A DNA stretch of 64,000 bases from an uncultured Flavobacteriaceae bacterium (GCA_964478845.1 CAYZJT010000012.1:8173-72172); one strand, 5' to 3'. Shown: positions 1,583-18,086, counted from the stretch's first letter. A program made the numbers and translations. Notes: generated by a model from the letters alone, not told the origin.

Positions 1583-2467
1583 ATGGCAAATCGCAAGCTT
1601 TTTTCAATTTTAAATTTACTGAGCGTCATCATTCTAATCACATGGAACGGCTATGCGAATACTGGCAACTTTAATGGCAAGACAGTTGGCGAGCTAAGCG
1701 CAGAATACAACAACCTATTCACACCAGCGAGCTACGCATTTTCTATCTGGGGATTGATTTTTATCAGCTTACTGGTCTTTGCGATTTACGGTGTTTATCA
1801 AGCGTTCTCAAAAACAGCTCTTGAGAAAACGCAGTCGTTGGCTAATGAAACTTCGAGAGAATACAATACCTATTCCAGCAGCTATGACCCCAAAATTGAT
1901 ATTGTCAAATCGACAGCGCCGTGGTTCCTCACAGCTAATATTTTCTGTATGTTGTGGGTGGGATTTTGGCTGGAAGAGATGATTTTAATCTCGGTGGTTT
2001 GTATGCTGGGAATATTGATCAGCCTGATCATGTGCTTGCGTAAGTTGGACATGGAAGTCTGGGATGCGCCGTTCCCCATCATCGCATTTGTCTGGTGGCC
2101 GCTATGCTTGTATTCAGGTTGGATAAGTGTCGCGACGATTGCCAATTTTTCTGCGTGGCTCAATAGTTCATTTGAAATTGCCATGGGAACCCAGATCACA
2201 TGGACGATCGTCATAATTGTAGCTGCGGCAGCAATCAATCTACTGATGATCATTTATAGATGCATGCGTGAATTTGCGATTGTAGGAGCATGGGCGCTGG
2301 TTGCAATTTACATGCGTCATTCTGGTGAACTGACTTCAATTGCATACACGGCTCTCGGTGGTGCAATCTTATTACTTGTTGCAGCAGGAATCCACGGATC
2401 TCAGAATACCGACACCAATCCATTCTTCAAAATGCAGGAATGGCTAAAAAGCAGAAAGACGGCATAA
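1583..2467 (+). CDS. Tryptophan-rich sensory (TspO-like) integral membrane protein
   Basis: Multiple TM helices; FTPASYAFSIWGLI and LYSGWISVATIAN motifs typical of this family. Confidence 0.7.
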   Translation: MANRKLFSILNLLSVIILITWNGYANTGNFNGKTVGELSAEYNNLFTPASYAFSIWGLIFISLLVFAIYGVYQAFSKTALEKTQSLANETSREYNTYSSSYDPKIDIVKSTAPWFLTANIFCMLWVGFWLEEMILISVVCMLGILISLIMCLRKLDMEVWDAPFPIIAFVWWPLCLYSGWISVATIANFSAWLNSSFEIAMGTQITWTIVIIVAAAAINLLMIIYRCMREFAIVGAWALVAIYMRHSGELTSIAYTALGGAILLLVAAGIHGSQNTDTNPFFKMQEWLKSRKTA

Positions 2468-2469
2468 AA

Positions 2470-2492
2470 AAGCCCCGCAAACTGCGAGGCTT
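2470..2492. terminator. Probable bidirectional intrinsic terminator
   Basis: AAGCC(C)CGCA-AAC-TGCG(A)GGCTT stem preceded by an A-run, between convergent genes. Confidence 0.6.
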
Positions 2493-2511
2493 GAATGATT
2501 TCTAATTTTTC

Positions 2512-2922
2512 TTAACAATGCTCGTTGTAGGCACCTTTAAGGTTTTCTGCAATCATTTCTGCAGGGCGACCCTCAATGTGGTGACGCTCTAGCATGTGAA
2601 CCAATTCACCATCTTTAAAAAGCGCCATGCTGGGTGAGCTCGGCGGGAAAGGTACCATCTGGCTACGCGCAGCATCTACCGCCTCTCGATCTACACCCGC
2701 AAAAACGGTCACTAGATGATCTGGTTTTTGATTGTTTTCCAAAGACATTTTTGCACCTGGACGTGCATTTGCCGCCGCACATCCACAAACCGAGTTGACC
2801 ACGACTAGAGTAGTTCCTTCGCTTTGGATGGCATTGTTTACTTCTTCTGCGGTATATAGATGTTCAAAACCTGCGTTGCCTAGATCGTCACGCATAGGTT
2901 GTACTAATTCTGGTGGATACAT
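2512..2922 (-). CDS. BrxA/BrxB family bacilliredoxin
   Basis: NSVCGCAA (CGC) motif and PPSSPS-x-ALFKDG. Confidence 0.9.
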
Positions 2923-3118
2923 AATGTTATTTTTTGCAAAGGTAATTTGTCGAGCCTATAATCGAATTACCTTCTATAAGTTGTTCCTATGTCAGACTTT
3001 GATTTGATAATAAGTTTCCAGTTTATGAGAAAATTGTTGATTATGCTGCGTCCTCAGGGGTCAGACCATGCAACTCACGAACGTTAATATTTCTATTTGG
3101 GAAGTTTAAGAGGGAACC

Positions 3119-3424
3119 TTATCTCAAAGAATCAAAAAGTTCTTGAGGATCACGGCGATTATCCTAAAACGCAAGGATAATTATTTGGGGACTTTTGTAA
3201 TGATATAGAAGGCTATAATGTCCTATGATTACTGCCCGAGTATCTTCATGAACGGTAGGCTTTCCCATTTCAGGGAAGTTTCTCAGAAGTTTGAGCCTCT
3301 CACGGATTTCTGAATTCAATTTTCTAGAGTACCTAACATTCCCGTTACGCTTATTCCAGTAATCAAATACGTGGTTTCTTTGTCGTCTTGCTGTCGCAGT
3401 CCATGAAATGGTCAACTCATCCAT
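3119..3424 (-). pseudogene. RelE/ParE family toxin interrupted by an in-frame TAG at 3164-3166
   Basis: ORF stops at ILAF-TAG, but the frame continues DNRRDPQELFDSLR to TAA at 3119-3121; a TGG at that codon would restore the family-typical FWDxRxDP C-terminus. Confidence 0.7.
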
Positions 3425-3645
3425 TCTGCGTCTTCAGCTTGCAGGTCTTCATCTGAAATCAGATTTCCCTCTTGAATGTCTTCTTCACTCAAGGCAAGCA
3501 TTTCAATTTGATAAGAATCCAATTGGATTTTTTCGGGCGACTCCACAGATGTCAGGATGCTTTCCATTGCCATAAGCAGCTTTTCGTTTGTCGCAAGCAT
3601 TATTCGATCAACCAGTCTGCTTTTTAAGCTGTTAATTGTTTCCAT
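3412..3645 (-). CDS. Putative antitoxin of the RelE/ParE pair
   Basis: 77 aa, acidic C-terminus (ALSEEDIQEG), overlaps the toxin start. Confidence 0.7.
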   Translation of the reverse strand: METINSLKSRLVDRIMLATNEKLLMAMESILTSVESPEKIQLDSYQIEMLALSEEDIQEGNLISDEDLQAEDAEWMS

Positions 3646-3699
3646 AATTCAAATTTTTAAATCAAAAATCTGCCCAAGTAACTTTAAATTTTCATCTAA

Positions 3700-4104
3700 T
3701 CACGAGGCAAACATCTCCCGATATCTCTTACTTATCCGCTCTGCCAGCGCTTTCATTTCCTCATCAGTCAGCTTCATTTTTTTGCTGAAACGCATATCGT
3801 CCATCTGATTAATCGGAATCATATGCACGTGTACATGTGGGACTTCCAGCCCTATTACACTCATGCCTACTCGCTTGCATTTTACAGATTCCCTCAATGC
3901 CAGACCAACTTTTCTCGAAAACTCCATCAATCCAGCGTAAGTCTGCTGCGGTAGATCCAGCAGTTTATCAGTTTCTTCTTTTGGGATGCAGAGCGTATGA
4001 CCTGCTGCATTTGGATTAATGTCTAAGAATGCGTAGAACTCTGCGGTTTCTGCAATTTTATAGGAAGGTATTTCTCCAGCTACTATTTTGGTAAATATGC
4101 TCAT
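3700..4104 (-). CDS. HIT family nucleotide hydrolase
   Basis: SIFTKIVAGEIP N-terminus and HVHVH histidine triad. Confidence 0.92.
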   Translation of the reverse strand: MSIFTKIVAGEIPSYKIAETAEFYAFLDINPNAAGHTLCIPKEETDKLLDLPQQTYAGLMEFSRKVGLALRESVKCKRVGMSVIGLEVPHVHVHMIPINQMDDMRFSKKMKLTDEEMKALAERISKRYREMFAS

Positions 4105-4106
4105 GG

Positions 4107-4583
4107 TTAGTCCCTAGTTATATCCAGAATCTCCAATTTTAAAACCCCTACAGGCACCTGTGCTTCTGCAATGTCCCCTACTTCCTTGCCCAGCAATGCC
4201 CTGCCGATAGGTGAATCCACAGAAATGTGTCCCTTGCTCAAATCGGCCTCGCTCTGTGCGACCAGCTTGTAGTTCATCACCATGTTGTTGTTATGGTTTT
4301 TGATCTTGACGGTACTGTGGATTAAAGCCTTGGAAAGATCTAGGCTGTTTTCATCCACAACCCGAGCGTTTGCTACGACTTCTTCCAGTTTTGAAATGCG
4401 CATTTCCAGCATTCCTTGCGCCTCTTTGGCCGCATCGTATTCTGCATTCTCACTCAAGTCACCCTTATCGCGCGCCTCGGCAATGGCTTGTGATGCCGCG
4501 GGCCTTTCTACGTCTTTCAAGTGCTTTAGCTCGTCGCGCAATTTTTGCAGACCCTCTGCCGTGTAATATGAAACTTTACTCAT
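4107..4583 (-). CDS. greA: Transcription elongation factor GreA (start moved to the ATG at 4583)
   Basis: EARDKGDLSENAEYDAAKE and ISVDSPIGRALLGK motifs. Confidence 0.95.
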   Translation of the reverse strand: MSKVSYYTAEGLQKLRDELKHLKDVERPAASQAIAEARDKGDLSENAEYDAAKEAQGMLEMRISKLEEVVANARVVDENSLDLSKALIHSTVKIKNHNNNMVMNYKLVAQSEADLSKGHISVDSPIGRALLGKEVGDIAEAQVPVGVLKLEILDITRD

Positions 4584-4603
4584 GTCAATTGATTTTGGAT
4601 AAT

Positions 4604-4623
4604 TACGCTTTCGCGAAAGCGTA
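4604..4623. repeat. GCTTTCGCGAAAGC palindrome, 20-bp extended form, 20 nt upstream of the greA ATG
   Basis: TACGCTTTCGCGAAAGCGTA read directly. Confidence 0.95.
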
Positions 4624-4762
4624 CAAATAATCATTTTTAAAGAAATGAACTGTATCAGGTAATCCAGATAGACCCACAAATACAAAAATCCCTGCCTGAG
4701 GGATTCATAAACAAATATACTAAAAGCCGATTCAAGCGTTTTAAATTTACAACTTTTAGATC

Positions 4763-5191
4763 ATGCGATACGCCAAATATCTTTTTCTGTTTTTGCTGAT
4801 GGCAGGTTGCTCTGATGACGACGATCAGCGCAGCAATCCGTTCTTGGTAGACGTGGGATTTTCAGTAGAGCTGAACACCAATCTCCCTCAATTTTCCAAC
4901 TTGAACTTCAACAACGGAGTCGTTGAAGTCGACAATGCGGGAATACGCGGCGTGGTAGTTTACAGACTCAACCAAGAAACCTATCTGGCATGGGAACTTA
5001 GCGATCCCAACCGTGCGCCAAACAACTGTTCCCGTCTACGCGTGAACGGTCTTGAGTTAGAAAGCCAATGTCCTGATGATAACAATAGCTACAACCTGAT
5101 TACTGGACAACCAGTGACAGGCGGCGGTAGGTTTAGTCTAAAGCCTTACCGAGCGGTACGTGAGGGAAGTATGGTAAGGGTTTTTAACTGA
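4763..5191 (+). CDS. Conserved Bacteroidetes lipoprotein with Rieske-like fold
   Basis: Lipobox MAGC followed by acidic residues; two internal Cys. Confidence 0.6.
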   Translation: MRYAKYLFLFLLMAGCSDDDDQRSNPFLVDVGFSVELNTNLPQFSNLNFNNGVVEVDNAGIRGVVVYRLNQETYLAWELSDPNRAPNNCSRLRVNGLELESQCPDDNNSYNLITGQPVTGGGRFSLKPYRAVREGSMVRVFN

Positions 5192-5204
5192 TTTGTATAA
5201 AGCT

Positions 5205-5251
5205 CCCCGCCTTAGACAAGGCGGGGATCGTTCAAAACTTTGTTTTGAACG
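5205..5251. repeat. Two adjacent perfect hairpins (REP-like element or bidirectional terminator)
   Basis: CCCCGCCTT-AGAC-AAGGCGGGG (5205-5226) and CGTTCAAAAC-TTT-GTTTTGAACG (5229-5251), between convergent genes. Confidence 0.7.
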
Positions 5252-5291
5252 AGGGGTGGTTGGATAGCTGTTCAGATGTAAATGAACTAAT

Positions 5292-7472
5292 CTAAAACCT
5301 CACCGTCACCCCAGTCAAAAAATTGATCCCTGCCTGCGCGTACAGAAATGCAAAATCATTGGCCACTAGATTCCCCGCATCATTCGGTGCATCAAAACTG
5401 AAAAAGTAGCCGTTGTTCTCGTACTCTAGATCAAAAAAGTTATTCACCTGAAAAGTAAACGTTACATCCCGCGCCCAGCTCATCGTATTCCAGATGTACT
5501 GAGTATTCAGATCCAGTACGCCGTACGCATCCAGTTTTGATGCCTCGGCTTCTATGTTGCTCATGAATTGTTCACCAACGTATTTTGAAAACAAGGTGAT
5601 ATCCAGATTCTCTGTCGCCTCGTAGGTGAATGCACCGCCAGCCACAACGCTAGGCGAGTAGGAAATCTCCGTGTTGCCAAAACTCCTCAGTTCACCATCT
5701 CGCTCCGCGAAAAAGTCACGGTTTTCGTTAATGCTCAAGGCTAGATTGGGTCTTAAAACCAACTGATCTGCAACTCGCCATACGGCATCCAACTCCAGCC
5801 CTAGCCTGTAGCTGCTACCACTATTCTCACGTATCGGGAAACCTACTGCATCGATGGCTCCAGTCAAAACTAACTGGTTTCTGAAATCCATGTAATAAGC
5901 ATTTGCGTTAAGTCTGAAGTTTTGGCTATCGTGACGCCATCCCAACTCAAAATCGTCCAGTTCCTCTGGCTCTGGATTACCATTTTCAAAATCTACTCGA
6001 GCAGGCTCGCGATTTGCACGGGCGTAGGATAAATAAAATCTGTTTTTGTCATCCAATTGATAAGTCAATCCGGCTTTTGGATTGAAGAAAAAGAAATTTT
6101 CATCCACATCCAGCGGCAGGTTGCCTCGCAGAGTCCCTCCTGCCTCGTAGCTTATTCTTCTGATCTGCAAATCACCGTAGGCAGTCAGGTTTTCCGTAAG
6201 GTCGTAAGTCGTTTTCAGGTACAGATTTGCATCGGTCTTGTCGCTGCGATTGTCAAAATACCTAGTCGTCAGATTTGGTGCAGGCACATTAATCACATTG
6301 ATGACATCACCGTACTGCTCACCATCGTAGCGATTCACGCCACCTCCTAAAATAACGTCTATCTCATCCTTTTTAAAGTTCAAGCTGAAAACTGCCCCGT
6401 AAAAGTCGCTGTTCAGATGCCCTTGAGTAACTAGGTCAGATCGTATTTGTGAAACACCATTTACGGTGACTGGTAGCAGTCTAAAATTTAGCAGAAACGC
6501 ATCGTCCATGTACTGCTCAAAAAACCCACGCCCGTAGGTGTAGTGGCCCGAAATATTTCCAGTCCAGTTCTCATTGAATTTATGCGAGACGTGCAGCTGA
6601 TAATGATCCTGATTGTAGTTATCGGTTTCGTTATCGTAGGCTCGCCGATTGCCCTGAGCATCAAAATAAAGTCCATCAGGATTTGCTCGCCTGTCCATCG
6701 CGATTTCCTCTCTGGTCTGACCAGTAAAGGAAAGGCCCGTGCGCTCTTCACCGCCAAAAACCAATGCTTTTATCTGCGTCTTATCTGTTCTATAGATACC
6801 GCTCAGATAGTACGAGCGCAGATCAGCAAATGCTCGATCGATGAACCCGTCCGACTCAATGCGCGATAGTCTGGCGTTGAACATGAATTTGTCATTGAGC
6901 AGACCTGTACCCACTTTCACCGTATTCTTAAACGTATTGAAACTACCAGCACTACTGGCTATTTCTGCGTAGGGAAAGCGATTATTATCATCTGTCAGGA
7001 CATTGATACTCGCGCCAAATGCCCCAGCACCATTAGTCGATGTCCCTACCCCGCGCTGCACTTGGACGTTCTCGACGCTACTGGCAAAATCTTGAAGATT
7101 GACCCAAAAGCTGCCTTGGCTATCGGCATCGTTGTAGGGGATTCCATTCAGAGTCACGTTGATGCGCGAGTTTTCGGCTCCTCTAATTCTGATGTCTGTG
7201 TAACCTATTCCCGTACCGTCAAAGGTGGTGCTGACGACATTCGGCAAGAAATTCAAAAGGATAGGAATGTCCTGACCTAGATTGGTTTTCCGCAGTTCTT
7301 CCTTGCTGATTTCTGAGTAGGATACGGGTGTTTTTTTAGTCGCGCGAGTGGATTTCACCACTACTTCCTCCAGCTTTTCCGCTTTGGTTGAGTCGGCTGG
7401 TTGCGGGTTTTGGGCAATCGCTGCGCCCATGATTGCATTCAAGACAAATCCTAAGTAAAGCTTTCTTTTCAT
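5292..7472 (-). CDS. TonB-dependent receptor, probable thiamine uptake
   Basis: Signal peptide, TonB box LEEVVV, plug domain (VQRGVGTSTNGAGAFGASINV), C-terminal Phe, upstream TPP riboswitch. Confidence 0.9.
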   Translation of the reverse strand: MKRKLYLGFVLNAIMGAAIAQNPQPADSTKAEKLEEVVVKSTRATKKTPVSYSEISKEELRKTNLGQDIPILLNFLPNVVSTTFDGTGIGYTDIRIRGAENSRINVTLNGIPYNDADSQGSFWVNLQDFASSVENVQVQRGVGTSTNGAGAFGASINVLTDDNNRFPYAEIASSAGSFNTFKNTVKVGTGLLNDKFMFNARLSRIESDGFIDRAFADLRSYYLSGIYRTDKTQIKALVFGGEERTGLSFTGQTREEIAMDRRANPDGLYFDAQGNRRAYDNETDNYNQDHYQLHVSHKFNENWTGNISGHYTYGRGFFEQYMDDAFLLNFRLLPVTVNGVSQIRSDLVTQGHLNSDFYGAVFSLNFKKDEIDVILGGGVNRYDGEQYGDVINVINVPAPNLTTRYFDNRSDKTDANLYLKTTYDLTENLTAYGDLQIRRISYEAGGTLRGNLPLDVDENFFFFNPKAGLTYQLDDKNRFYLSYARANREPARVDFENGNPEPEELDDFELGWRHDSQNFRLNANAYYMDFRNQLVLTGAIDAVGFPIRENSGSSYRLGLELDAVWRVADQLVLRPNLALSINENRDFFAERDGELRSFGNTEISYSPSVVAGGAFTYEATENLDITLFSKYVGEQFMSNIEAEASKLDAYGVLDLNTQYIWNTMSWARDVTFTFQVNNFFDLEYENNGYFFSFDAPNDAGNLVANDFAFLYAQAGINFLTGVTVRF

Positions 7473-7559
7473 TGCTTTTTTCTAAGCAGGCAAAAGAGGC
7501 ATTTACCTAAGTGTTATTCAAAATTGTTGAGGTTCCTCAATGCGTTGGATTGATTAGTG

Positions 7560-7614
7560 TTACGCTTTCGTACTTCGGCAAGCTCAGTATAAATTTCCCT
7601 GCGGGAAAGCGTAA
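7560..7614. repeat. Composite hairpin related to the dispersed palindrome, carrying a nested 24-nt insert
   Basis: TTACGC-TTTC-[GTACTTCGGCAAGCTCAGTATAAA]-TTTC-CC-TGC-GGGAAAGCGTAA. Confidence 0.7.
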
Positions 7615-7649
7615 TAAAAACCAACATCTGAATTACCGGTAAGGCAATT

Positions 7650-7722
7650 ATGCATCCCTTGGCAGCATTACCTGCCCAGGTTCCTCGGGTATAATCTCAG
7701 CCGTTGCCAGCACCCCTTGAGA
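7650..7722 (-). ncRNA. TPP (THI-box) riboswitch
   Basis: Minus strand reads AAGGGGTGCTGGCAACGGCTGAGATTATACCCGAGGAACCTGGGCAGGTAATGCTGCCAAGGGA, matching the GGGG..CTGAGA..ATACCC..GAACCTG..GGTAATGC..AGGGA consensus; lies upstream of a TBDR. Confidence 0.92.
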
Positions 7723-7776
7723 CGCGGCAAAATTAAGGGCAAATGCTAATTGTGAAACAAAACAGAGCTACTTTTT

Positions 7777-7784
7777 TAAGTTTG
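7777..7784 (+). promoter_or_regulatory. Bacteroidetes -7 promoter element (TAnnTTTG) for aat
   Basis: TAAGTTTG 7 nt before the ATG; equivalent elements at 9830, 10556, 23551, 34386 and 46464 precede other genes. Confidence 0.6.
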
Positions 7785-7791
7785 TCCGTTC

Positions 7792-8445
7792 ATGGTATTA
7801 CTCGACGACCGCCTCATCTTCCCAGATCCGCTGGACGCGCCAGAGCACGTCTTGCTAGCAGTAGGCGGTGACCTGTCGACAGAGCGGCTGATGCTGGCCT
7901 ATCGGTCTGGAATCTTCCCGTGGTATAGCGATGGCGAGCCTATTTGCTGGTGGTCGCCTGATCCCCGCATGGTGTTTGACCTCACTGCGGATCAGCCTAT
8001 GCGCATCACAAAATCTCTAAAGCAGAGCAGACGCAATCGCGGATATATCGTCAAATTCAACACCGATTTTGAACAAGTCATCGCCAATTGCCGACACTCA
8101 CCGAGAATAGGACAGGACGGCACATGGCTAAATGATGAGATGCAACAAGCCTACTTAAAGTTGAATGAGTTAGGTCACGCAAAATCCGTAGCGGTTTATA
8201 AAAACGATGAGTTAGTAGGCGGACTATACGGCATCGACCTGCCAGAATCAAAGATCTTTTGCGGTGAAAGCATGTTTTCAAAGCATCGGGACGCCAGCAA
8301 GATTGCCCTTTGGTGGCTTGTAGAAAAACTTCAGGCAGATGGCTATCGCTACATCGATGGACAGGTGCAAAATGACCATTTAGAAAGTCTGGGTGGGATT
8401 ACGCTTTCGCGAAAGCGGTTTCTACAACAGCTCTACAACTGGTAA
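7792..8445 (+). CDS. aat: Leucyl/phenylalanyl-tRNA--protein transferase
   Basis: GGDLS..L..AYRSGIFPW, WWSPDPR and FCGESMFS motifs. Confidence 0.95.
   Translation: MVLLDDRLIFPDPLDAPEHVLLAVGGDLSTERLMLAYRSGIFPWYSDGEPICWWSPDPRMVFDLTADQPMRITKSLKQSRRNRGYIVKFNTDFEQVIANCRHSPRIGQDGTWLNDEMQQAYLKLNELGHAKSVAVYKNDELVGGLYGIDLPESKIFCGESMFSKHRDASKIALWWLVEKLQADGYRYIDGQVQNDHLESLGGITLSRKRFLQQLYNW
8403..8416. repeat. Palindrome copy inside aat (LSRK frame)
   Basis: Exact 14-mer. Confidence 0.95.
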
Positions 8446-9095
8446 TACATTCCTAGATTGAGGAACAGTAACCGCTCGCTGCTATCCGTAAAATCCTCGA
8501 TGCGATATTCTGCGGTAAATTGAAGTTTGATGTCCTTGATCAACTGCCTACCTAATCCCAGCGCAAACCGCTGGTCGTAGGCCGGTCGTACATCGTTTTC
8601 TGCAATTAGCAGCGTTTCAAGATTGCCCGTAAGGTAGAATTCCTTGGCATCTGTCACCTCACCATTCAGCGGTATCGATGCAGAAAACCGATACCTCCAT
8701 CGGTGGGTTGTCCGATCCCCCCGCAATCGCTGATCCCATCTGCCTCGGTGCGCGATTTTAAGGCTGTTGTATTTTCTGGTATAAACATACTGCTCGGTAA
8801 ATCGCAGTTCTTCTGGTCTGGCTTCGTCAAACAGCTCACGGTACATGACGCCGGCACCAATTTGGGAATAGAAACCCAGCTCGTAACTCACAAATTGCGC
8901 TGCCTGAATATGCAGCACCTCGGCATCTGGGCTCACCACGTTGCGCTGCTCGACAGTTGTGTTTAGATTCCATCTGGTCTCGCTTTTCCACGATAGGGTG
9001 ATGGACGGCTGCGCCAAAACCTCATCCAGCTGACCTGTTGCAAAAAATGGACATAGCAACAGGATGGGAAGAAACCTAAAACAACAGGAAATCAT
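8433..9095 (-). CDS. DUF2490 family outer-membrane beta-barrel protein
   Basis: Signal peptide; HRGRWDQR and RWRYR strands typical of DUF2490. Confidence 0.75.
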   Translation of the reverse strand: MISCCFRFLPILLLCPFFATGQLDEVLAQPSITLSWKSETRWNLNTTVEQRNVVSPDAEVLHIQAAQFVSYELGFYSQIGAGVMYRELFDEARPEELRFTEQYVYTRKYNSLKIAHRGRWDQRLRGDRTTHRWRYRFSASIPLNGEVTDAKEFYLTGNLETLLIAENDVRPAYDQRFALGLGRQLIKDIKLQFTAEYRIEDFTDSSERLLFLNLGMYYQL

Positions 9096-9660
9096 ACTCC
9101 AGTCGTTTTACTTCTCTAAAACTGATCAATTCGCCAGCATGCGAGAACAAATATTCCCTTCGATAGATCTTGCGCTTGTCCTTGAAGGCCACTACCAGTT
9201 CATAATTCTGAAAGGCGCCTTTTTTTATTTGCTGCTCGATAGACTGTGGATCGCTTTTGATAAAAAGGTATTGCTGCTGGACTTTCTCGATACGGTATTT
9301 TCTTGCGACTGTGTCTAACTGGCTGCGTATTTTAAGCAATGCCGCCTTTTCAATTTCCCGTTTGGAAATTTTGATCTCAACATCTTGGATTTTTCCATTC
9401 TGGTCGAACTCTGCACTAATTCTATTACCAGAGCGTTTAAATTTTGCTTCAAAACTGGAGCGTTCACCATCGATCTCTTTATAGTATTTGATACGTTTAT
9501 CTGCAGAATTGATAAGATCGACAATAGGTAGTGCAGGAGCAGGGAAATCATCTCGTTCAATTCCTGTTTCTTGTTCTTGTTTTGCAACCCCTTTTTGAGC
9601 GTAAAGCTGTCCGCAAAAAAGGAAAATTGTGCTGACTAGTGTAAACAAGAGCCTATTCAT
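9076..9660 (-). CDS. Secreted hypothetical protein (PepSY/BLIP-like repeats)
   Basis: Signal peptide; FEAKFK..ISAEFDQNG pattern. Confidence 0.55.
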   Translation of the reverse strand: MNRLLFTLVSTIFLFCGQLYAQKGVAKQEQETGIERDDFPAPALPIVDLINSADKRIKYYKEIDGERSSFEAKFKRSGNRISAEFDQNGKIQDVEIKISKREIEKAALLKIRSQLDTVARKYRIEKVQQQYLFIKSDPQSIEQQIKKGAFQNYELVVAFKDKRKIYRREYLFSHAGELISFREVKRLEYDFLLF

Positions 9661-9735
9661 GATGCTAAGGTAGTATTACCCATAGTTCATCGATTCTGTT
9701 TTGCTATTATTTAAGTGTGATGTTTTTTGTATTAA

Positions 9736-9749
9736 GCTTTCGCGAAAGC
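9736..9749. repeat. Palindrome copy, intergenic between divergent genes
   Basis: Exact 14-mer. Confidence 0.95.
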
Positions 9750-9841
9750 GTAATCATCAACAATCAAAAACTGCTTTAGAAATGTAGCTTCCTAAACTTT
9801 ATTACGACCTACCAACAAGATGATAGGGCTAAATTTGCAGT

Positions 9842-10534
9842 ATGATCAAAGGATTTTTCAGCAAGCATAAATGGAAGATACTGTTCATGTTGATCCTGTG
9901 TGGGGGAATCATGGCGGCTTTCCAGTATGCGCTTACGCCAGAGAAAACACTTGCTGTCTTGCAGCCTGATCAGTTCGACCCCACCCTAGTGGACGATAGC
10001 AAGCAATTTGTCAAAAAATATCACACCATCGCAGATTTCAAACTGGTCAACCAAAACGGTGATACCATCACCCAAGATTTCTATAAAGACAAAATCTACG
10101 TCGCAGACTTCTTTTTCACCACTTGCCCGTCTATTTGTCCCATGATGACCGAAAACATGATGATGGTACAGGAAGAATTTAAGGACGATCCAGAGGTGCT
10201 GATTCTTTCCCATAGCGTTACACCAGAGCAAGACTCAGTTGAAGTTCTGCGCGCCTACGCAGATAAGAAAGGCATCCTTGACAAAAAGTGGAACCTAGTC
10301 ACCGGGGACCGAAAAGAAATTTATGACCTGGCTCGCAAATCATACCTTGCTGCTAAGAATAAGTCTGGTCGTGAATACGGTTTGGTGCATACCGAAAATT
10401 TCATGCTGGTCGATAAAGAAGGTCGATTGAGAGGAAGATCATACGATGGCACAAATCCAGAGGAAGTTGAGGCACTTATCAAAGACATTTACACCCTAAA
10501 GGACATCTACCGCAGACAGGAAGAGAAGAAGTAG
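9842..10534 (+). CDS. SCO family copper chaperone
   Basis: FFTTCPSICP (CxxxC) and LVHTENFMLVD. Confidence 0.93.
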   Translation: MIKGFFSKHKWKILFMLILCGGIMAAFQYALTPEKTLAVLQPDQFDPTLVDDSKQFVKKYHTIADFKLVNQNGDTITQDFYKDKIYVADFFFTTCPSICPMMTENMMMVQEEFKDDPEVLILSHSVTPEQDSVEVLRAYADKKGILDKKWNLVTGDRKEIYDLARKSYLAAKNKSGREYGLVHTENFMLVDKEGRLRGRSYDGTNPEEVEALIKDIYTLKDIYRRQEEKK

Positions 10535-11536: not shown

Positions 11537-11785
11537 ATGAAAAATACTTCAGTCTCGCTGGGCACTCATTTTGATGAATTTCTCAAAAATCAAATCGATA
11601 GCGGTCGCTATAAAAACGCGAGTGAAGTGATACGCGCTGCGCTCAGATTGTTAGAAGATGAGGAAAGGTACAATGCGTGGTTGAGAGCTGAAATTCAGAA
11701 AGGTATTGATAGTGAGATAGTCGAGAATTTTGATTTTGAAGAGCATCTCAAAGCTTTGAAAGCAAAAAAGCGTAAGAGTGGTTAA
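11537..11785 (+). CDS. parD: ParD-type (CC2985 family) ribbon-helix-helix antitoxin
   Basis: TSVSLG...GRYKNASEVIRAALRLLE. Confidence 0.88.
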   Translation: MKNTSVSLGTHFDEFLKNQIDSGRYKNASEVIRAALRLLEDEERYNAWLRAEIQKGIDSEIVENFDFEEHLKALKAKKRKSG

Positions 11786-12074
11786 ACTTCACATTCGACA
11801 GGCGGCTATCGATGACCTCGATGAAATCTGGGACTACACAGAATCACAATTTTCTAGTTCACAAGCAGACAAGTATTACTTTCAGATCAAAAGTGTTTGT
11901 CATTCACTGCTTTCAAATCCTAATATTGGAAAATCTTACACTCATTTAGGGGAATCAATAAAGGGAATTGTATCTGGCAGGCACCTAATTTTCTATAAAA
12001 TTCACGAGGATAAAATTGATATATTACGAATTGTACACGGAAATAGAAATTATAGCGGAAAAGATTTGAAATAA
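11778..12074 (+). CDS. parE: ParE family toxin
   Basis: AIDDLDEIWDYT...QADKY...HLIFY...ILRIVH; overlaps the antitoxin. Confidence 0.88.
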   Translation: MVKLHIRQAAIDDLDEIWDYTESQFSSSQADKYYFQIKSVCHSLLSNPNIGKSYTHLGESIKGIVSGRHLIFYKIHEDKIDILRIVHGNRNYSGKDLK

Positions 12075-12091: not shown

Positions 12092-13156
12092 TTACGTTAC
12101 TATTTCACCAAGTCCAGCATCGTGAGTCGGTATCATCCACCCATTTTCAATCCTGAAAAGCCCAGAAAAAGGATCATTGGTGAAATCTAGATGACCATCT
12201 AGATCAGCGTATTGGGTGTTTGGTCTGGCTAGTGCAAAATGCAGTCCTGCGGCTATTCCCAGCATGCTTTCATCCAGACAACCTACCATCACCGGCATTC
12301 CAGCTGCGCTGGCTACAGAGTCGATGTGAACTCCCTGAGTGATCCCTCCCACCTTCTGCAGTTTGATGTTGATCATGTTTGCCCCAGCAGATTTTGACAA
12401 TGAGTGCGCATCGCTGATTGATCGCACGCCCTCGTCTGCCATTACGGGAAGTGGTATTTCTGTGGCGAGTCGCTGTAATGCGATATCATCCTGATAATCC
12501 GTGGGCTGCTCAAGCATCTGGATGTTTAGCTTTTTTGTCCTTTTGGCAAATAGCTTGCTTTTTGCAATGTCATAACCTTGGTTGGCATCAAATCGCAACC
12601 CCAGTTCTAGGCCGTAGACTTCTCTTAGTTTGGCGAGTGCCTTGACATCCTGATCCAGATCTAGTCCACCTTTGATTTTCAAGATTCTGTAGCCTTGTTG
12701 CCAGTACGCTTTCGCGAAAGCGAGAACATCATCCACAGGCATAATCCCGATGGTCACACTCGTGGCGATCTTTCTACGATAACCGCCCAAAAACTTGTAA
12801 AGTGGCACACCGGCAGCCCGCGAAATCAAATCGTATAGCGCGATGTCCACCATCGCCAGCGCAGACCGCTGGTTTTGAAGATGTTTTTTCAACTCGGCAA
12901 TGTGCAGCCTGTATTCCCATGGGTCTTTATTTGACAGGTAGGGCTCGATGGTGGTATTGATGGCATTGACCACGGACTCTGCCGTCTCGCCGGTGATTTC
13001 CATATCGGGCGCCGCACAACCCCATCCAGTCAGTCCGTTGTCTGTATTGAGTTTGAGAACTACGTTTTGGGCGCTGTCGATAGACTCGTAGGCGATCGTG
13101 TAGCCAGACTTCATTTTTAAATCCAGCACTTGATATTCGATACTCGTGATTCTCAC
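12092..13156 (-). CDS. Enolase-superfamily L-Ala-D/L-Glu epimerase family protein (DgcA-like)
   Basis: KIK general-base motif, DANQG / EQP / DE metal ligands, NIKLQKVGG and DLDG. Confidence 0.88.
   Translation of the reverse strand: MRITSIEYQVLDLKMKSGYTIAYESIDSAQNVVLKLNTDNGLTGWGCAAPDMEITGETAESVVNAINTTIEPYLSNKDPWEYRLHIAELKKHLQNQRSALAMVDIALYDLISRAAGVPLYKFLGGYRRKIATSVTIGIMPVDDVLAFAKAYWQQGYRILKIKGGLDLDQDVKALAKLREVYGLELGLRFDANQGYDIAKSKLFAKRTKKLNIQMLEQPTDYQDDIALQRLATEIPLPVMADEGVRSISDAHSLSKSAGANMINIKLQKVGGITQGVHIDSVASAAGMPVMVGCLDESMLGIAAGLHFALARPNTQYADLDGHLDFTNDPFSGLFRIENGWMIPTHDAGLGEIVT
12708..12721. repeat. Palindrome copy inside the epimerase (AFAKA frame)
   Basis: Exact 14-mer. Confidence 0.95.
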
Positions 13157-13159
13157 GGA

Positions 13160-13954
13160 CTAATATCTGTTTTGGTACAGTTTGTCAAGAGGCATGTTTT
13201 TGATGCTTTCGACAAATTCCACCATCTTTCTGATGGAAATATCCCACATCTTTTTGCCTTTCTCCGCGGTGGCTTTTCTTGCGTTGCCCATCACGCCGCT
13301 GTTGGAAATACGATCTGTATGCACATACCAGTTCACTCCACGATCTGAAGTGAAATCTAGATACTCGTTGTCCAGATCAAGGGTTTCATCTACAGCTTTG
13401 TTCATGTCGACAATTTCTGGTCGCAGCGCCAGCGTGGTGCTGGTTTCAATCTCACCGGCGTGGATGTCGTTTGGAGTATCGATCAATCCGTAAAGATCGA
13501 TATCGCTGGTTTCGCCCGTGTCTACACAAACAAAAATCTTTGCATCACGATTGATCATTTGCGCAGCGTAGGTGAGTGTAGGCTTGTTGTCGCCGTGACC
13601 GTTTAGGATGATCAGTTTCTTGATTCCGTTGTGTGCTAGACTCATCCCCAGATCATAGATGATTGCACTCAATGCATTATTGGTCACACTCAACGTTCCC
13701 TTGAAATCGCTGTGATGGTAGGAAACGCCATAGGGAATGGGCGGTAACACAAAAGGTTTGGGGTCAGCGCAATTTTTTGCTACTTCCTGTGCCATGTAAA
13801 CGGCATCGTAGTAATCGATGTCCACAGGTAGATGTGGCCCGTGCTGCTCGATGGCACCGCAAGGTAAAATGGCGGTGTCAATCTTTTTCAGCCTTTCTTC
13901 AATCTCTTGCCAGCTCAAGGTTTCCCAGAGGTAGTCGGTTTTTTTATTCTGCAT
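13160..13954 (-). CDS. Creatininase family amidohydrolase (start moved to the ATG at 13954)
   Basis: GAIEQHGPHLPVDID, NGHGDN and HAGEIETS motifs. Confidence 0.88.
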   Translation of the reverse strand: MQNKKTDYLWETLSWQEIEERLKKIDTAILPCGAIEQHGPHLPVDIDYYDAVYMAQEVAKNCADPKPFVLPPIPYGVSYHHSDFKGTLSVTNNALSAIIYDLGMSLAHNGIKKLIILNGHGDNKPTLTYAAQMINRDAKIFVCVDTGETSDIDLYGLIDTPNDIHAGEIETSTTLALRPEIVDMNKAVDETLDLDNEYLDFTSDRGVNWYVHTDRISNSGVMGNARKATAEKGKKMWDISIRKMVEFVESIKNMPLDKLYQNRY

Positions 13955-15473
13955 TTGCGTATTTGTATTTCTTCTGAGCCAGAAACTCAGGGGTGATTTC
14001 TTGATCTTCCCAGCCATTGTTTTTCCTGATGACCGCACCATCTGCGTATTCATCCAGAATGTTGAAAAGTGGCAGGCGCACGTATTCAGGAAGATCCTCT
14101 AAGTTACTGCGCTGTTCATCAAAACGCAGCTCCATCACACGTGGGTGTGATTTTGCCAATCGTTTGGTGAATTCGTTTTTTTCGATAGCGCCCTTTTCCA
14201 ACAGCATGTGGTAGAGGTGAGCGGCATCGCTGCCTATTTGTTTTATACTGGTATTGGATAGTTTTTGAAGTGCAAGCTCAATCTGCAGGTCGCTGTAGCC
14301 GCAGTTTTTAGGATCGGATTCAAGGGCGGTAATCATTCCTATGATCCGGCGGCACTTCTCGCATTTGCCGCAGGGATACATGCGTTTTTCGTGTTCATGA
14401 GCCGCGTGACAGCTTACCTGTTCTTTTTGCAGATCAGGATAACGCTTGAGTAAGACCTTCATGATTAGCAATTCTGACATGCTGCGCAGCAACGAAAACT
14501 GATATAAGTCCCAGCCTTTCCTTGCATAAAATCTGGTCATCGCATTATCAAAGTATTTGCTCTGATCATATAGTGCCGCGTAATGCGTTATTCCGTTCAA
14601 CGATTTTTTCTCGGTGGTGTCGTACTCGTCGCCTACGATGATGTTTTTCAGGCCTTGTTTCAACGCGATAGGCAAGACGCCAAAAAGAAAAACGGATACC
14701 GTCCACAAACGCACGGGGTAGATATCTGCACGTATACTGGCGTAATTAGGTTTGATGAATTTTAGGTGTCGCAGCATCCAGTTGAAGATTCGGTCGCTGT
14801 TGCACCATACCTTGTTAGTACGTGGTTCGCTTTCGCGAAAGCGTCTAAAAGCATTTACCGCGGTAAACCAATGTCTCCCTGCCTCGTTCACATAAATAGG
14901 ATGCGGATAGCTAAATTCCTTGATCATCCCATAGGAAACTAGGCTGTCCTTTCCGCCGCTGCTCAGGATTGCGTAGGCCTCGGGATTCGCTTTCGCGAAC
15001 CTGCCTGTCGTGCCATGGCAGGCAGGAGCGGAATCAATTTTACACGCTGGCTGTGTGAACTTGATCTCTGCCTGTGTGTATCGTTCACGCTTCTCTGGGA
15101 CTAGACCTGTAAACTCTTCAGTCAAAAATGGATTGTCCACCAGCTTGTTGCATAGGATTTCCCGACTTGTATTCTCGGTCATGTCCTTGATCAATTGCTG
15201 ATCGGTTTTGTCATAATTGCCGTCAAAAATCAGCTCACGGCAAAACAGGCCGTAATTCATCGCGACCTGAGCGACCATCATACTAGCCAAATTCTGATCG
15301 GCTAAATCCTTTTTGTTGAACAGCTTATCGTTGTAAGTGTAGAAAAGCGTATTTGTAAACGTGTTGCCGTCCAGATCGATGATTTCATAAACCGCCTGCA
15401 CCCGTCGAGGGGTGATGATGGGTTTGTGAATCCGCAGGCTGCGCAGTACGACAAAATCCTCGAGTGCAATCAT
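13944..15473 (-). CDS. Uncharacterised PP-loop ATP-utilising enzyme (MurL/QueC-like)
   Basis: SSGGKDS PP-loop and C-terminal Cys cluster CHAAH-x7-PCGKCEKCRR. Confidence 0.65.
   Translation of the reverse strand: MIALEDFVVLRSLRIHKPIITPRRVQAVYEIIDLDGNTFTNTLFYTYNDKLFNKKDLADQNLASMMVAQVAMNYGLFCRELIFDGNYDKTDQQLIKDMTENTSREILCNKLVDNPFLTEEFTGLVPEKRERYTQAEIKFTQPACKIDSAPACHGTTGRFAKANPEAYAILSSGGKDSLVSYGMIKEFSYPHPIYVNEAGRHWFTAVNAFRRFRESEPRTNKVWCNSDRIFNWMLRHLKFIKPNYASIRADIYPVRLWTVSVFLFGVLPIALKQGLKNIIVGDEYDTTEKKSLNGITHYAALYDQSKYFDNAMTRFYARKGWDLYQFSLLRSMSELLIMKVLLKRYPDLQKEQVSCHAAHEHEKRMYPCGKCEKCRRIIGMITALESDPKNCGYSDLQIELALQKLSNTSIKQIGSDAAHLYHMLLEKGAIEKNEFTKRLAKSHPRVMELRFDEQRSNLEDLPEYVRLPLFNILDEYADGAVIRKNNGWEDQEITPEFLAQKKYKYANAE
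14829..14842. repeat. Palindrome copy inside the PP-loop gene (FRES frame)
   Basis: Exact 14-mer; a partial 11-nt copy also lies at 14989-14999. Confidence 0.95.
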
Positions 15474-16528
15474 CTCAAGTGGTTCTTGAGCAAGTTGACC
15501 AGTCCATCTGCACCGTGGGCAAGCACATCAAAAGCCGGAAGCCCAGTTTCCTCAGTAATCTTCTGACAAGCTGATTCAATATCTGCTGGGTCTAGATTTT
15601 CATGGTTAACGGTGACTGCAATTACCTTCTTCCCAGAAATAGTCTCGATGGCATTGATCTGTTCAGGCAACGAATGCAGGCGATAGCCGGGAAAGCCGTC
15701 GTATTCCAGTCGGGTAGGGGCGTGCTGCAGAATGACATAGTCTGGTCTGCCAGCCGCCAAAATCTCAAACCCGCCGGGATAGGCTGGATTCATCAGGCTG
15801 CCCTGACCCTCGATGACTAGGAGGTCTGGATTTTCGTTTTTCCATGCCTCGTGGGTAGCATGCTCTATCTCACCGCTCACAAAATCGTTGATGCAGCTGT
15901 CCATGATCATGCTGTATTTGGCACCCTGCATCCATGCAGTCTGACCTGTTCCCACCATTTCGGCTTTTTTGCCCGCCTTGCGGAAGGCATGAACGATGAT
16001 CCAAGCGGTGGTGCGTTTGCCTATCGCGCTATCGGTGCCCAGTACGGCGATCTTCAGGCAATTGACTTCCTCGATTTTTCCCGTGAAGAAATGCAGCTCA
16101 TCGCGATCTGGTGTTTTGCGTACGTCTTTGATGGTTATATTATTTTCTTTAGCGAGGTTGACCAGTCGCTCATCTTTGGTTAAAAAGTCGTGCAGACCAG
16201 AAACGATGTCCATCCCGCAGCTTATGGCTTGAGCGATGATATCACGCGCCTTGGCAGGTAATCGACCTCCGTCAGGGGCAAGTCCGATCACAAAATTCTC
16301 GACGATATTTTCTTTTGTTGCGCTGTCAAAGTCGGCGTAAATGGGGATTCCGGCATTTTTGCCGTCAAGCACTTCGCCAGCATCTTTCCCAGCGTAGTTG
16401 CTGTCGATGACACCCACCACATCAAAACGTTCCGTAAAACGCACGAGGCCGTGGGCAGTTTTTCCGTTTGGGGTATTGAATGCACCCTCGCAGTAAACCA
16501 GCGCGGTGCCGTTGATGGATTTTTTCAT
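15470..16528 (-). CDS. DUF1611 family protein (DgcN-like N-acetyltransferase)
   Basis: GKTAHGLVR, GLAPDGG, GTDSAIGKRTT, GTGQT and IEGQGSL motifs. Confidence 0.88.
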   Translation of the reverse strand: MKKSINGTALVYCEGAFNTPNGKTAHGLVRFTERFDVVGVIDSNYAGKDAGEVLDGKNAGIPIYADFDSATKENIVENFVIGLAPDGGRLPAKARDIIAQAISCGMDIVSGLHDFLTKDERLVNLAKENNITIKDVRKTPDRDELHFFTGKIEEVNCLKIAVLGTDSAIGKRTTAWIIVHAFRKAGKKAEMVGTGQTAWMQGAKYSMIMDSCINDFVSGEIEHATHEAWKNENPDLLVIEGQGSLMNPAYPGGFEILAAGRPDYVILQHAPTRLEYDGFPGYRLHSLPEQINAIETISGKKVIAVTVNHENLDPADIESACQKITEETGLPAFDVLAHGADGLVNLLKNHLR

Positions 16529-16530
16529 AA

Positions 16531-17604
16531 CTATCTTTTTGCTGTGATGACCGCGACAAAACGATCATTTTCCAGCGGTTGTTTTTTGTGTAATTCCAAC
16601 AAAGCAATCAAGCCAGCGCTAGAACAGGGCAGAATGCGCATACCCTCTTTTTGGTTCAGGTAGCTGCTCATCTCTTTAAGCTTGCGGTCTGAAACGTGTG
16701 CCGCGTAGCCACTGCTTTCGCGCAAAGCGTAGAGGGCTTCTTCGCCATCAAAGCTATGCCAGTTGATCAAAGCCTCATTGACTAATGTCTCTTTGATTTT
16801 GCTTGGTTCCAGATCTTCGCAATGATCCAGTCCTTTTAGATGCGAGCTGATGATAGGATTCTTGTGCGCCGATGATCCAGCGACCATGTATGGAATTCTG
16901 CTTGTCTTCCCCCTTTTATAGAGACTCACGAAACCACGATATATTCCTGCTAGCACGGTACCGTTAGAAACGGGGCAGGCCAGATAGCGTGGTGCGTCTC
17001 GCAGGGTATCGTAGATTTCATTTGCAATTTCAGCGTAAGCTGCGATCTGCATAGGTGTGTTTGCACCGCCGGGGTTGGCATCATACCACGAATTTTCTGC
17101 TGCTTGCTTTGAACTCGACTGAACTACATCCTCATAAGTTCCAGTCAGCCTTATCAGTTCTGCGCCTAGCTGCTCGATCTGTACGGTGCGTTCTGAATGA
17201 TAGCTTTCTGGCATGAATACGTTGCAGTTCAGGCCAGCCAAACTTGCTGCATAAGCACAGGCTACACCATAGTTCCCACAGGTGGCGAGGGCAAGTGTAT
17301 CATAGCCTCTACGTAAGGCATCGAGCACCTGCGCAAAAGCAATGCGGTCTTTTTGGGTGCCAGTAGGATTGTTTCCCTCGTATTTCAGGAAAAGCTGTCT
17401 GATACCATGATCCCTTTCCAGCGTTCTGGCACGAGTAAGATTGGTATCCCCTACTTCTAGGCTGATGATATCTTCAAAAGATTCTATGCGATCTTGTAAA
17501 GAAAATGAATGATTCCTGACCATCGCACTCAGGCGATCAACCTCGGCGGTGTTAGTCACCACTTGACTTTTTACACCGTCCAGAAGATTGTTTTCAGTTA
17601 TCAT
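16531..17604 (-). CDS. Fold-type II PLP-dependent enzyme (threonine-synthase-like)
   Basis: LKYEGNNPTGTQKDR Schiff-base motif, ATCGNYG and CPVSNGT phosphate loop. Confidence 0.85.
   Translation of the reverse strand: MITENNLLDGVKSQVVTNTAEVDRLSAMVRNHSFSLQDRIESFEDIISLEVGDTNLTRARTLERDHGIRQLFLKYEGNNPTGTQKDRIAFAQVLDALRRGYDTLALATCGNYGVACAYAASLAGLNCNVFMPESYHSERTVQIEQLGAELIRLTGTYEDVVQSSSKQAAENSWYDANPGGANTPMQIAAYAEIANEIYDTLRDAPRYLACPVSNGTVLAGIYRGFVSLYKRGKTSRIPYMVAGSSAHKNPIISSHLKGLDHCEDLEPSKIKETLVNEALINWHSFDGEEALYALRESSGYAAHVSDRKLKEMSSYLNQKEGMRILPCSSAGLIALLELHKKQPLENDRFVAVITAKR
16714..16728. repeat. Degenerate palindrome copy (one extra base) inside the PLP gene
   Basis: GCTTTCGCGCAAAGC. Confidence 0.6.
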
Positions 17605-17738
17605 TTTTCAACATCAGACCTATAGAATTAGTAAGTAAATGTATGAGAATGCTATATCTGAAAAAGCGCTTTAAGAATAATTTTGCTAAAGCCTAATTTA
17701 TGTCTAACCCATTAAACTGAAAATAATGAATTAAAAAA

Positions 17739-17756
17739 GCCATCCTTGCGGATGGC
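17739..17756 (-). terminator. Intrinsic terminator of the 17784-18086 gene
   Basis: GCCATCC-GCAA-GGATGGC followed by TTTTTT on the minus strand. Confidence 0.75.
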
Positions 17757-17783
17757 TCTGAAAAATCTAATATGTTATTTTGA

Positions 17784-18086
17784 CTAGTTGTCGTCAGTAC
17801 CGTTGATCTCTTCGTTGATCTCACGGTTCACATCTTTACCTGCGTCTTCAATTTCTTGACCTACCTGACGACCAGCTTCATCGATTTGACGTCCTGCGCG
17901 CTCTGCTGCGCCCTCTACTTCTTCACCTGCATCTTCAAGCTCTTCACCAGCAGCATCGATGTTTCTTTCTGTGTCCTCTGCTGCATTTTCAATAGTCTCT
18001 TCTGCGCTGTTTTCAGTTTCTTCTCTACATGAAGTTGTAGCGATCATTAAACCTGCGACAGCAAAACTTAACAATAATCTTTTCAT
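17784..18086 (-). CDS. Small acidic lipoprotein with amphipathic repeats
   Basis: Lipobox TTSC; repeated (A/D)AG(E/R)(E/Q) units. Confidence 0.75.
   Translation of the reverse strand: MKRLLLSFAVAGLMIATTSCREETENSAEETIENAAEDTERNIDAAGEELEDAGEEVEGAAERAGRQIDEAGRQVGQEIEDAGKDVNREINEEINGTDDN

Follow-up and report, generated by a model that had tools for sequence, protein, structure and literature searches.

As Sakai et al. 2006 are said to have described, the N-succinylamino-acid racemase pathway of Geobacillus acylates, racemises and deacylates its substrates; the acyltransferase is of the GNAT type, the racemase belongs to the enolase superfamily and the deacylase is of the M20 type, and the pathway has neither a step driven by adenosine triphosphate (ATP) nor a pyridoxal phosphate (PLP) enzyme. 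A second system, DgcN-DgcA of marine Proteobacteria and haloarchaea, combines a DUF1611 N-acetyltransferase with an enolase-superfamily N-acetyl-D-glutamate racemase, and is known as a route for D-glutamate (PMC10845958). The muropeptide epimerase MurL converts ATP into adenosine monophosphate (AMP) and, according to reviews, has no known conserved domains (PMC5808125, PMC8788868). Here we analyse a cassette of five genes located on the minus strand, from 17604 down to 12092, of a 64,000-nucleotide stretch of DNA from an uncultured Flavobacteriaceae bacterium (GCA_964478845.1 CAYZJT010000012.1:8173-72172; this whole stretch is hereafter referred to as the window). It encodes a PLP enzyme, a DUF1611 protein, a PP-loop protein, a creatininase-family protein and an enolase-superfamily epimerase. 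The superfamilies are known, but their combination and the central PP-loop enzyme family are undescribed: no account of the five-gene cassette or of this family was found in the literature, in agreement with the preliminary description of this DNA, which had presumed a new route.

The two protein families of DgcN-DgcA, DUF1611 and the enolase superfamily, share one operon in the cassette, as had been recognized at the outset, and the logic of that route, in which acylation of the amine is followed by inversion of the alpha-carbon and deacylation, is the best available analogy. The Geobacillus pathway follows the same protect-invert-deprotect logic. The cassette nevertheless departs from DgcN-DgcA in several ways: its DUF1611 and epimerase genes are not adjacent but have the PP-loop and hydrolase genes between them, no DgcR-type regulator is present, and three more enzymes are obligatory partners.

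A conserved and mobile five-gene operon

The ORF (open reading frame) listing and direct reading of the sequence agree on five co-oriented genes. Gene 1, for the PLP enzyme (16531-17604, minus strand, 357 amino acids), gene 2, for the DUF1611 protein (15470-16528, minus, 352 amino acids), gene 3, for the PP-loop protein (13944-15473, minus, 509 amino acids), and gene 4, for the creatininase-family protein (13160-13954, minus, 264 amino acids), begin with ATG, and gene 5, for the enolase-superfamily epimerase (12092-13156, minus, 354 amino acids), begins with GTG. The ATG at 13954 was retained as the start of gene 4 because the orthologues and the Pfam domain fit it; extending the frame as far as it will go, to 14053, would merely give an ORF of 297 amino acids. 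Genes 1 and 2 are separated by a 2-nt spacer (TAG-tt-ATG), genes 2 and 3 overlap by 4 nt (ATGA), genes 3 and 4 overlap by 11 nt (ATGCAGAATAA), and a 3-nt spacer lies between genes 4 and 5 (TAG-tcc-GTG), which is exactly the arrangement of short gaps (2-3 nt) and overlaps (4-11 nt) first reported for the locus. No convincing terminator was seen inside the five-gene block in a consensus scan. These junctions indicate that the five genes form one translationally coupled operon.

With each species represented by a single genome, 359 genomes were found to encode the PP-loop protein. The gene order was surveyed by tblastn with the five window proteins, requiring all five genes to lie on one strand, in unchanged order, within 7 kb, and 80 loci were kept. 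The full cassette, with order and strand preserved, is found in 64 of these loci; another eight are cut by contig ends and the remaining eight are exceptions. The operon is thus conserved in other species, and chance cannot account for the arrangement. Compared with the window proteins, the proteins of these loci have median identities of 66% for the PLP enzyme, 72% for the DUF1611 protein, 57% for the PP-loop protein, 77% for the creatininase-family protein, the most conserved member of the cassette, and 50% for the epimerase. In one Flavobacteriaceae metagenome-assembled genome (MAG; locus L089, G005:C25) an insert of about 8 kb separates the DUF1611 gene of the cassette from its PP-loop gene (from about 2251 to 10405), and all five genes are intact.

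Clustering of the flanking ORFs uncovered no conserved partner such as a transporter or regulator. The biggest flanking family occurs in only 8 of the 80 loci, so nothing else, whether transporter, regulator or other partner, travels regularly with the cassette. A gene for a CorA-type Mg2+ transporter (YGMNF motif; for instance L061 4540-5607) is found no more than about 300 nt from the cassette in six of the 80 loci, which probably belong to related Flavobacteriaceae. In the tree of the PP-loop protein, sequences from Flavobacteriales, Saprospirales, Marinilabiliales, Bacteroidales and Cytophagales are interleaved, and Desulfobacterales, one Calditrichota genome and one SAR324 genome are nested inside Bacteroidota clades. 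The guanine-plus-cytosine content of the cassette is 0.47-0.48, against 0.36-0.41 on both flanks, and each cassette gene is present in one copy in the 3.15 Mb genome to which the window belongs. Because phyla are mixed in the tree, no flanking gene is common to the loci and the composition of the cassette differs from that of its flanks, horizontal spread appears to be the simplest reading. The carriers are mostly marine and sediment heterotrophs.

An undescribed PP-loop family at the centre of the cassette

The 509-amino-acid product of gene 3 has no sequence match in Pfam, NCBIfam or the PDB. It carries a PP-loop (SGGKDS) and a four-cysteine zinc motif (C355-x12-C368-x2-C371-x2-C374). A structural model predicted by AlphaFold (AF2) from 22 relatives has a predicted local distance difference test (pLDDT) score of 84, and Foldseek found a single significant match for it, QueC (3BL5; E 3.6e-4, probability 1.00, template modelling (TM) score 0.69 over the QueC chain). 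According to this model, gene 3 has the QueC fold. Common to gene 3 and QueC, the 7-cyano-7-deazaguanine synthase, are the SGGxDS PP-loop and a C-x(n)-C-x2-C-x2-C zinc motif. The two proteins are, however, only 15% identical, and the Pfam QueC model (PF06508) does not match full-length gene 3 and reaches E 0.19 on the zinc motif alone. Gene 3 also adds an N domain of about 160 amino acids and a C domain of about 110 amino acids, which match nothing yet are highly conserved, and its genomic context consists of amino-acid enzymes, not of queuosine genes. At least 2939 relatives, all of them unnamed, were recovered at 90% clustering (E <= 0.001), and a profile search of 1.84 billion representatives gave only 491 matches. 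On these searches, gene 3 belongs to an unnamed and undescribed family.

Two other leads were abandoned. A similarity to DUF6395 (E 0.07) led nowhere, and a sulfur-transfer PP-loop enzyme with a catalytic cysteine was rejected because C224 and C391 are absent in divergent relatives: P0249, P0254, P0263 and P0295 have VWSNVDR or VWSNIDR instead, and the only universal cysteines of the family are the four of the zinc motif. One divergent full-length relative, P0343 (502 amino acids), has kept the zinc-cysteine motif and lost SGGKDS (VGVLLNAAPEAV), and may be an inactivated or repurposed member of the family.

The relationship of gene 3 to MurL is more limited. The MurL hidden Markov model (HMM) NF041275 (cut-off 700 bits), run against the whole genome, left gene 3 unmatched even at E <= 10. 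The sequence used for direct comparison was a single C-terminal MurL fragment encoded beside a MurD-like gene, the sole one recovered from 301 genomes; with this fragment only, hhalign gave a probability of 79% and an E-value of 1.6e-5 over 70 columns. The common segment (FSLLR..SEL...SC...CGKCxKC) lies around the zinc-cysteine region, so that the likeness, as judged from this alignment, appears real but local, in a region that QueC also has. The earlier statement that MurL has a PP-loop could not be confirmed, since the reviews report no known domains (PMC5808125, PMC8788868) and the match obtained here is confined to these 70 zinc-cysteine columns. Both proteins are nevertheless ATP-using and devoid of classical domain annotation; MurL forms AMP (PMC5808125), and the PP-loop signature of gene 3 is what would be expected of an AMP-forming enzyme. 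Adenylation of a carboxylate, as initially proposed, is retained as the most likely reaction of the PP-loop enzyme. Unlike MurL, gene 3 has no MurD2 neighbour, and no mur gene adjoins the cassette. The host also possesses the glutamate racemase MurI (197 bits against a cut-off of 147), for which reason we rejected the cassette as a MurL/MurD2-style substitute for a missing glutamate racemase. Moreover, a UDP (uridine diphosphate)-muropeptide substrate is impossible in the wall-less archaea that carry a gene 3 orthologue.

Four partner enzymes

Gene 1 encodes a fold-type II PLP enzyme (Pfam PALP, E 2.4e-54). It scores 394.6 bits, against a cut-off of 266, on PRK06381, a narrow NCBIfam model named 'threonine synthase' that was not exceeded in any of 14 control genomes, and 99.9 bits, below the cut-off of 167, on the general model of the threonine synthase ThrC (TIGR00260). 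Alignment to the ThrC structures 2ZSJ and 1UIM indicates that the PLP-lysine motif (NPTGTQKDR) is retained. Gene 1 also keeps the carboxylate-binding Asn loop (TCGNYG), in line with an action on a free amino acid. The ThrC stretch NPxRxEGQKT, which we take to be its phosphate-binding site, aligns to NTPMQIAAYAE in gene 1, with Gln in place of Arg. Because this stretch is replaced and the TIGR00260 cut-off is missed, gene 1 was rejected as a true threonine synthase. Among 70 orthologues, 126 of its 357 residues are at least 97% conserved, and a homologue search with the protein returned cassette orthologues only.

The product of gene 2 consists of a Rossmann-like DUF1611_N domain (PF17396) and a P-loop DUF1611_C domain (PF07755), with 2G0T, 2OBN and 7XRJ as its PDB matches. 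Its Walker A motif reads GTDSAIGKRT, and the form GxDSAxGKRT is at least 97% conserved in the orthologues. On the DgcN model NF041892 (D-glutamate N-acetyltransferase) it scores 161.7 bits, far below the cut-off of 480, which characterizes it as a DgcN-family relative and not as a DgcN orthologue.

Gene 4 matches Pfam PF02633 (Creatininase; E 4e-69, 233 bits) and, in the PDB, 3LUB and 1J2T. Its metal and catalytic motifs (EQHGPHLP-D-D, NGHGDN and HAGExETS) are intact and conserved, as expected for what the sequence identifies as a creatininase-family metal amidohydrolase. No NCBIfam equivalog reaches its cut-off, whether MftE (TIGR03964, 133 bits against 172), creatininase (TIGR04448, 115.3 against 235), IolN or ArfB. 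Fusions of the PP-loop and creatininase proteins were looked for and found, among the long matches of the profile search, in three separate 50%-identity clusters (795, 781 and 826 amino acids), one of them in the cassette context DUF1611-[fusion]-epimerase. Two further candidate fusions were set aside as unreliable: DUF1611::PP-loop comes from one low-coverage contig and could be due to a 1-nt indel at the ATGA overlap, and PP-loop::methyltransferase likewise rests on one low-coverage contig. The PP-loop enzyme is the hub of the gene set: several deep lineages have it fused to the creatininase domain, and its gene adjoins that for DUF1611 in the full cassette and in the archaeal triad described below.

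Gene 5 comprises the domains MR_MLE_N and MR_MLE_C, and its best PDB matches are the dipeptide epimerases 3RIT, 1JPM/1TKK and 3JVA, over the full length (E 1e-51 to 1e-59). It falls below the cut-off of all NCBIfam epimerase equivalogs, with 152.2 bits against 400 for DgcA (NF042940, N-acetyl-D-glutamate racemase) and 209.4 against 500 (NF041118) and 106.7 against 343 (NF011708) for L-Ala-D/L-Glu epimerase; no DgcA for direct comparison was recovered from 151 genomes. The orthology to DgcN and DgcA that the preliminary description had implied is thus contradicted by the scores of both proteins, which are predicted to be other members of these families. Gene 5 keeps the full catalytic set of the dipeptide epimerases of B. 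subtilis (YkfB, 1TKK), Methylococcus capsulatus (3RIT) and E. faecalis (3JVA): the general acid/base lysines (K160-x-K162 and K268), three metal ligands (D190, E216 and D241) and a DxD motif (D318-L-D320) are all invariant among the 70 orthologues. Position 24, in contrast, is an invariant Glu, whereas it is Arg in YkfB (1JPM/1TKK) and 3RIT and Gly in 3JVA, the hydrophobic-dipeptide enzyme of E. faecalis. Given this Glu24 at the position of Arg24, and the further invariant acidic residues D51, E57, D295 and E296, the C-terminal residue of the substrate is probably basic, or at least non-acidic, and not D-glutamate; in this respect too the epimerase pocket differs from that required for the DgcN-DgcA reaction, being probably unsuited to glutamate.

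Partial cassettes and an archaeal core

In Lewinella cohaerens and two MAGs, the locus is reduced to PLP-PP-loop-creatininase or to PP-loop-creatininase only. These genomes have a single DUF1611 gene elsewhere, about 40% identical to that of the window and in two cases paired with a 33%-identical epimerase, which by its sequence is a different pair from that of the cassette. A divergent branch of the PP-loop family, named 'metal-binding protein', belongs to the Thermoplasmatales. In Thermoplasma volcanium GSS1 the order is major facilitator superfamily (MFS) transporter, PLP enzyme, DUF1611 and PP-loop protein, with identities to the window proteins of 42% for the PLP enzyme, which has the same motifs, 50% for DUF1611 and 28% for the PP-loop protein, and the PLP-DUF1611-PP-loop triad is also found in three other Thermoplasmatales loci. 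Neither a creatininase-family gene nor a dipeptide-epimerase-type enolase is present in the two Thermoplasmatales genomes examined. Unlike in DgcN-DgcA, the archaeal DUF1611 gene is therefore accompanied by the PLP and PP-loop genes but by no racemase gene. Thermoplasma lacks a cell wall.

Because the archaea keep the PLP, DUF1611 and PP-loop genes and some bacteria the PLP, PP-loop and creatininase genes, the constant core is formed by the PLP and PP-loop enzymes, usually with DUF1611, to which the hydrolase and the epimerase were added in bacteria. The initial picture of a two-gene pathway extended by three genes looks inverted in this light, since it is the DgcN/DgcA-like pair that can be dispensed with.

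A D-aminoacyl-tRNA deacylase gene (PF04414) is located directly upstream of the triad, on the same strand, in three of these loci (L092 3924-4679, L093 4065-4856 and L094 3932-4687); in T. volcanium it is 2.3 kb away on the other strand (L091 11753-12523). This proximity may hint at the handling of D-amino acids, or may be synteny inherited within one order.

A tentative pathway and its alternatives

With due caution, we propose that the operon encodes a self-contained, horizontally mobile route by which a free amino acid is converted to an amino acid or dipeptide that is stereo-inverted and probably basic. We would put this general scheme at slightly short of an even chance, and any specific substrate at much less. 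The catalytic motifs are intact in all five proteins. The ThrC-like PLP enzyme would use beta/gamma replacement or elimination to make or convert a free alpha-amino acid. Its alpha-amine would then be acylated by the DUF1611 protein, with acetyl-CoA as the donor by analogy with DgcN, and the carboxylate would be adenylated by the PP-loop enzyme (ATP to AMP and pyrophosphate), leading either to coupling with an amine, and hence to an N-acyl dipeptide or amide, or to a MurL-like inversion of the alpha-carbon. The product of the PP-loop enzyme would pass to the creatininase-fold hydrolase, often part of the same polypeptide, which would cleave an amide in it, either to remove the acyl group or to open an activated or cyclic intermediate, and finally the enolase-type epimerase would flip the C-terminal residue of a dipeptide with a free amine. 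In this scheme the order of steps is that of the genes, which would explain the fusions of consecutive steps.

Several considerations weigh against it. The order of the steps is inferred from gene order, fusions and family analogies only, and the use of acetyl-CoA by the DUF1611 protein is an assumption, since its DgcN score is far below the cut-off. It is awkward to have two potential epimerases, one MurL-like and one of the enolase type, in one pathway, and the fusion of hydrolase and ligase could equally reflect another kind of coupling, such as the supply of ammonia. As the archaeal form has neither hydrolase nor epimerase, the fourth and fifth steps are not essential to the core chemistry. 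Lastly, the reading of the epimerase pocket presupposes that Arg24 of YkfB pairs with the glutamate side chain of the substrate and that the DxD motif has the role ascribed to it in known epimerases.

A bolder version of the same idea, which we regard as rather unlikely though far from negligible, is that the 509-amino-acid protein founds a new QueC-fold, MurL-related, AMP-forming family and is the hub of a DUF1611-PP-loop-creatininase complex, providing, with a dedicated PLP enzyme, a hitherto unknown ATP-driven route, spread horizontally in Bacteria and Archaea, whose product is a basic amino acid or dipeptide that is D-configured or otherwise non-canonical. If this holds, chiral amino acids could be made or inverted in a third general way, in addition to the PLP racemases and to the cofactor-independent and enolase racemases. 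In any case, a pathway whose proteins remain 50-85% identical in several bacterial phyla, and which archaea share in part, must make or process something important. Its solution would name a family of about 3,000 sequence clusters (at 90% identity) that is invisible to Pfam and NCBIfam, assign a function to one branch each of the DUF1611 and creatininase families, possibly explain the ATP-dependent chemistry of the MurL type, and perhaps uncover a new metabolite in microbes from the sea and from sediments. Among the carriers, Maribacter, Kordia zhangzhouensis, Draconibacterium mangrovi, Lewinella cohaerens and Thermoplasma volcanium are in culture.

The cassette might instead serve the catabolism or salvage of D-amino acids in an extended DgcN-DgcA scheme. 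Free D-amino acids, or dipeptides with D-residues from detritus, would be N-acylated by the DUF1611 protein, inverted by the enolase and/or by MurL-like ATP chemistry, deacylated by the creatininase-fold protein and handed on to the PLP enzyme, which would deaminate or reuse them. Such a role would suit carriers that are mostly heterotrophs of sea and sediment, and it draws on the membership of the DUF1611 and enolase enzymes in the DgcN and DgcA families, for which a D-glutamate route is known (PMC10845958), and on the PF04414 gene found directly upstream in three of the four Thermoplasmatales loci. This last synteny is, however, confined to one archaeal order and may be inherited; the absence of any conserved transporter or regulator beside the cassette is unusual for a catabolic operon; the DgcN and DgcA cut-offs are missed by far; Glu24 speaks against D-glutamate; and the archaeal form lacks both racemase and deacylase. 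We therefore consider salvage doubtful, although it deserves to be kept in view. An improbable alternative starts from the QueC-like fold of gene 3 and from the recurrent PP-loop::creatininase fusions. QueC converts a carboxylate into an amide and then a nitrile using ammonia, and most PP-loop amidotransferases have a fused or partner amide hydrolase. The cassette would accordingly contain an amidotransferase of a new kind. Its creatininase-fold domain would hydrolyse an amide donor, and the ammonia or amine set free would react with the carboxylate that the QueC-like enzyme has adenylated, to give an amino-acid or dipeptide amide (or nitrile), such as a capped N-acyl amino-acid amide serving as a compatible solute, which would be in keeping with the mostly marine carriers. 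Nevertheless, no creatininase-family member is known to release ammonia for a partner enzyme, the hydrolase is missing from the Thermoplasmatales, the epimerase would be left without a role, and our data show no tie to salt or osmotic regulation.

Recycling or remodelling of peptidoglycan peptides was among the functions initially envisaged. The PP-loop enzyme would then be a muropeptide epimerase of the MurL type, and the dipeptide epimerase and the hydrolase would act on stem-peptide fragments, as might be suggested by the local profile similarity of gene 3 to MurL and by the resemblance of gene 5 to the L-Ala-D/L-Glu epimerases of murein peptide recycling. Yet orthologous triads occur in the wall-less T. 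volcanium and its relatives, the host genome has a normal glutamate racemase MurI, and no mur, amidase or peptide-transport gene is conserved nearby; on these grounds a peptidoglycan role is unlikely. The failure of the MurL HMM to match gene 3 and the replacement of the glutamate-binding Arg24 by Glu reduce its probability still further, so that we give it very little credence, and a D-glutamate substrate is likewise unlikely. Of the overall interpretation from which this analysis started, the operon, the family assignments and the fusions have therefore stood, while orthology to DgcN and DgcA, the two-gene core, the peptidoglycan or D-glutamate substrate and the PP-loop of MurL have not.

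Surroundings of the cassette

The upstream boundary of the cassette, as placed by consensus scans only, extends over 17677..17759 on the minus strand. It consists of a terminator-like hairpin with a T-run (17759-17736), which closes the preceding gene, followed by a promoter-like site at 17706-17677 in front of gene 1. No riboswitch or leader RNA was found by Rfam across the whole window. The preceding gene (17784-18086, minus strand), which has its own terminator, encodes a very acidic 100-amino-acid protein with a lipoprotein-like signal peptide and many E/A/G repeats, for which Pfam gives a weak apolipoprotein-like match only; a membrane protein of the acyltransferase_3 type is also encoded upstream. 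On the other side, a convergent gene pair for a ParD antitoxin and a ParE toxin (11537-12074, plus strand) ends 17 nt from the stop codon of the epimerase gene. The function of these immediate neighbours, the ParD/ParE pair, the small secreted protein and the acyltransferase_3 protein, is unrelated to that of the cassette.

The window also contains 19 sites of the 16-bp palindrome CGCTTTCGCGAAAGCG at no more than one mismatch, where none is expected. Two exact copies are located within cassette coding sequence, at 12707-12722 in the epimerase gene and at 14828-14843 in the PP-loop gene, the latter encoding RFRES at positions that vary among the orthologues. The presence of these copies in coding sequence suggests that a genome-wide repeat has entered, or has been tolerated by, a cassette that seems to have been acquired horizontally.

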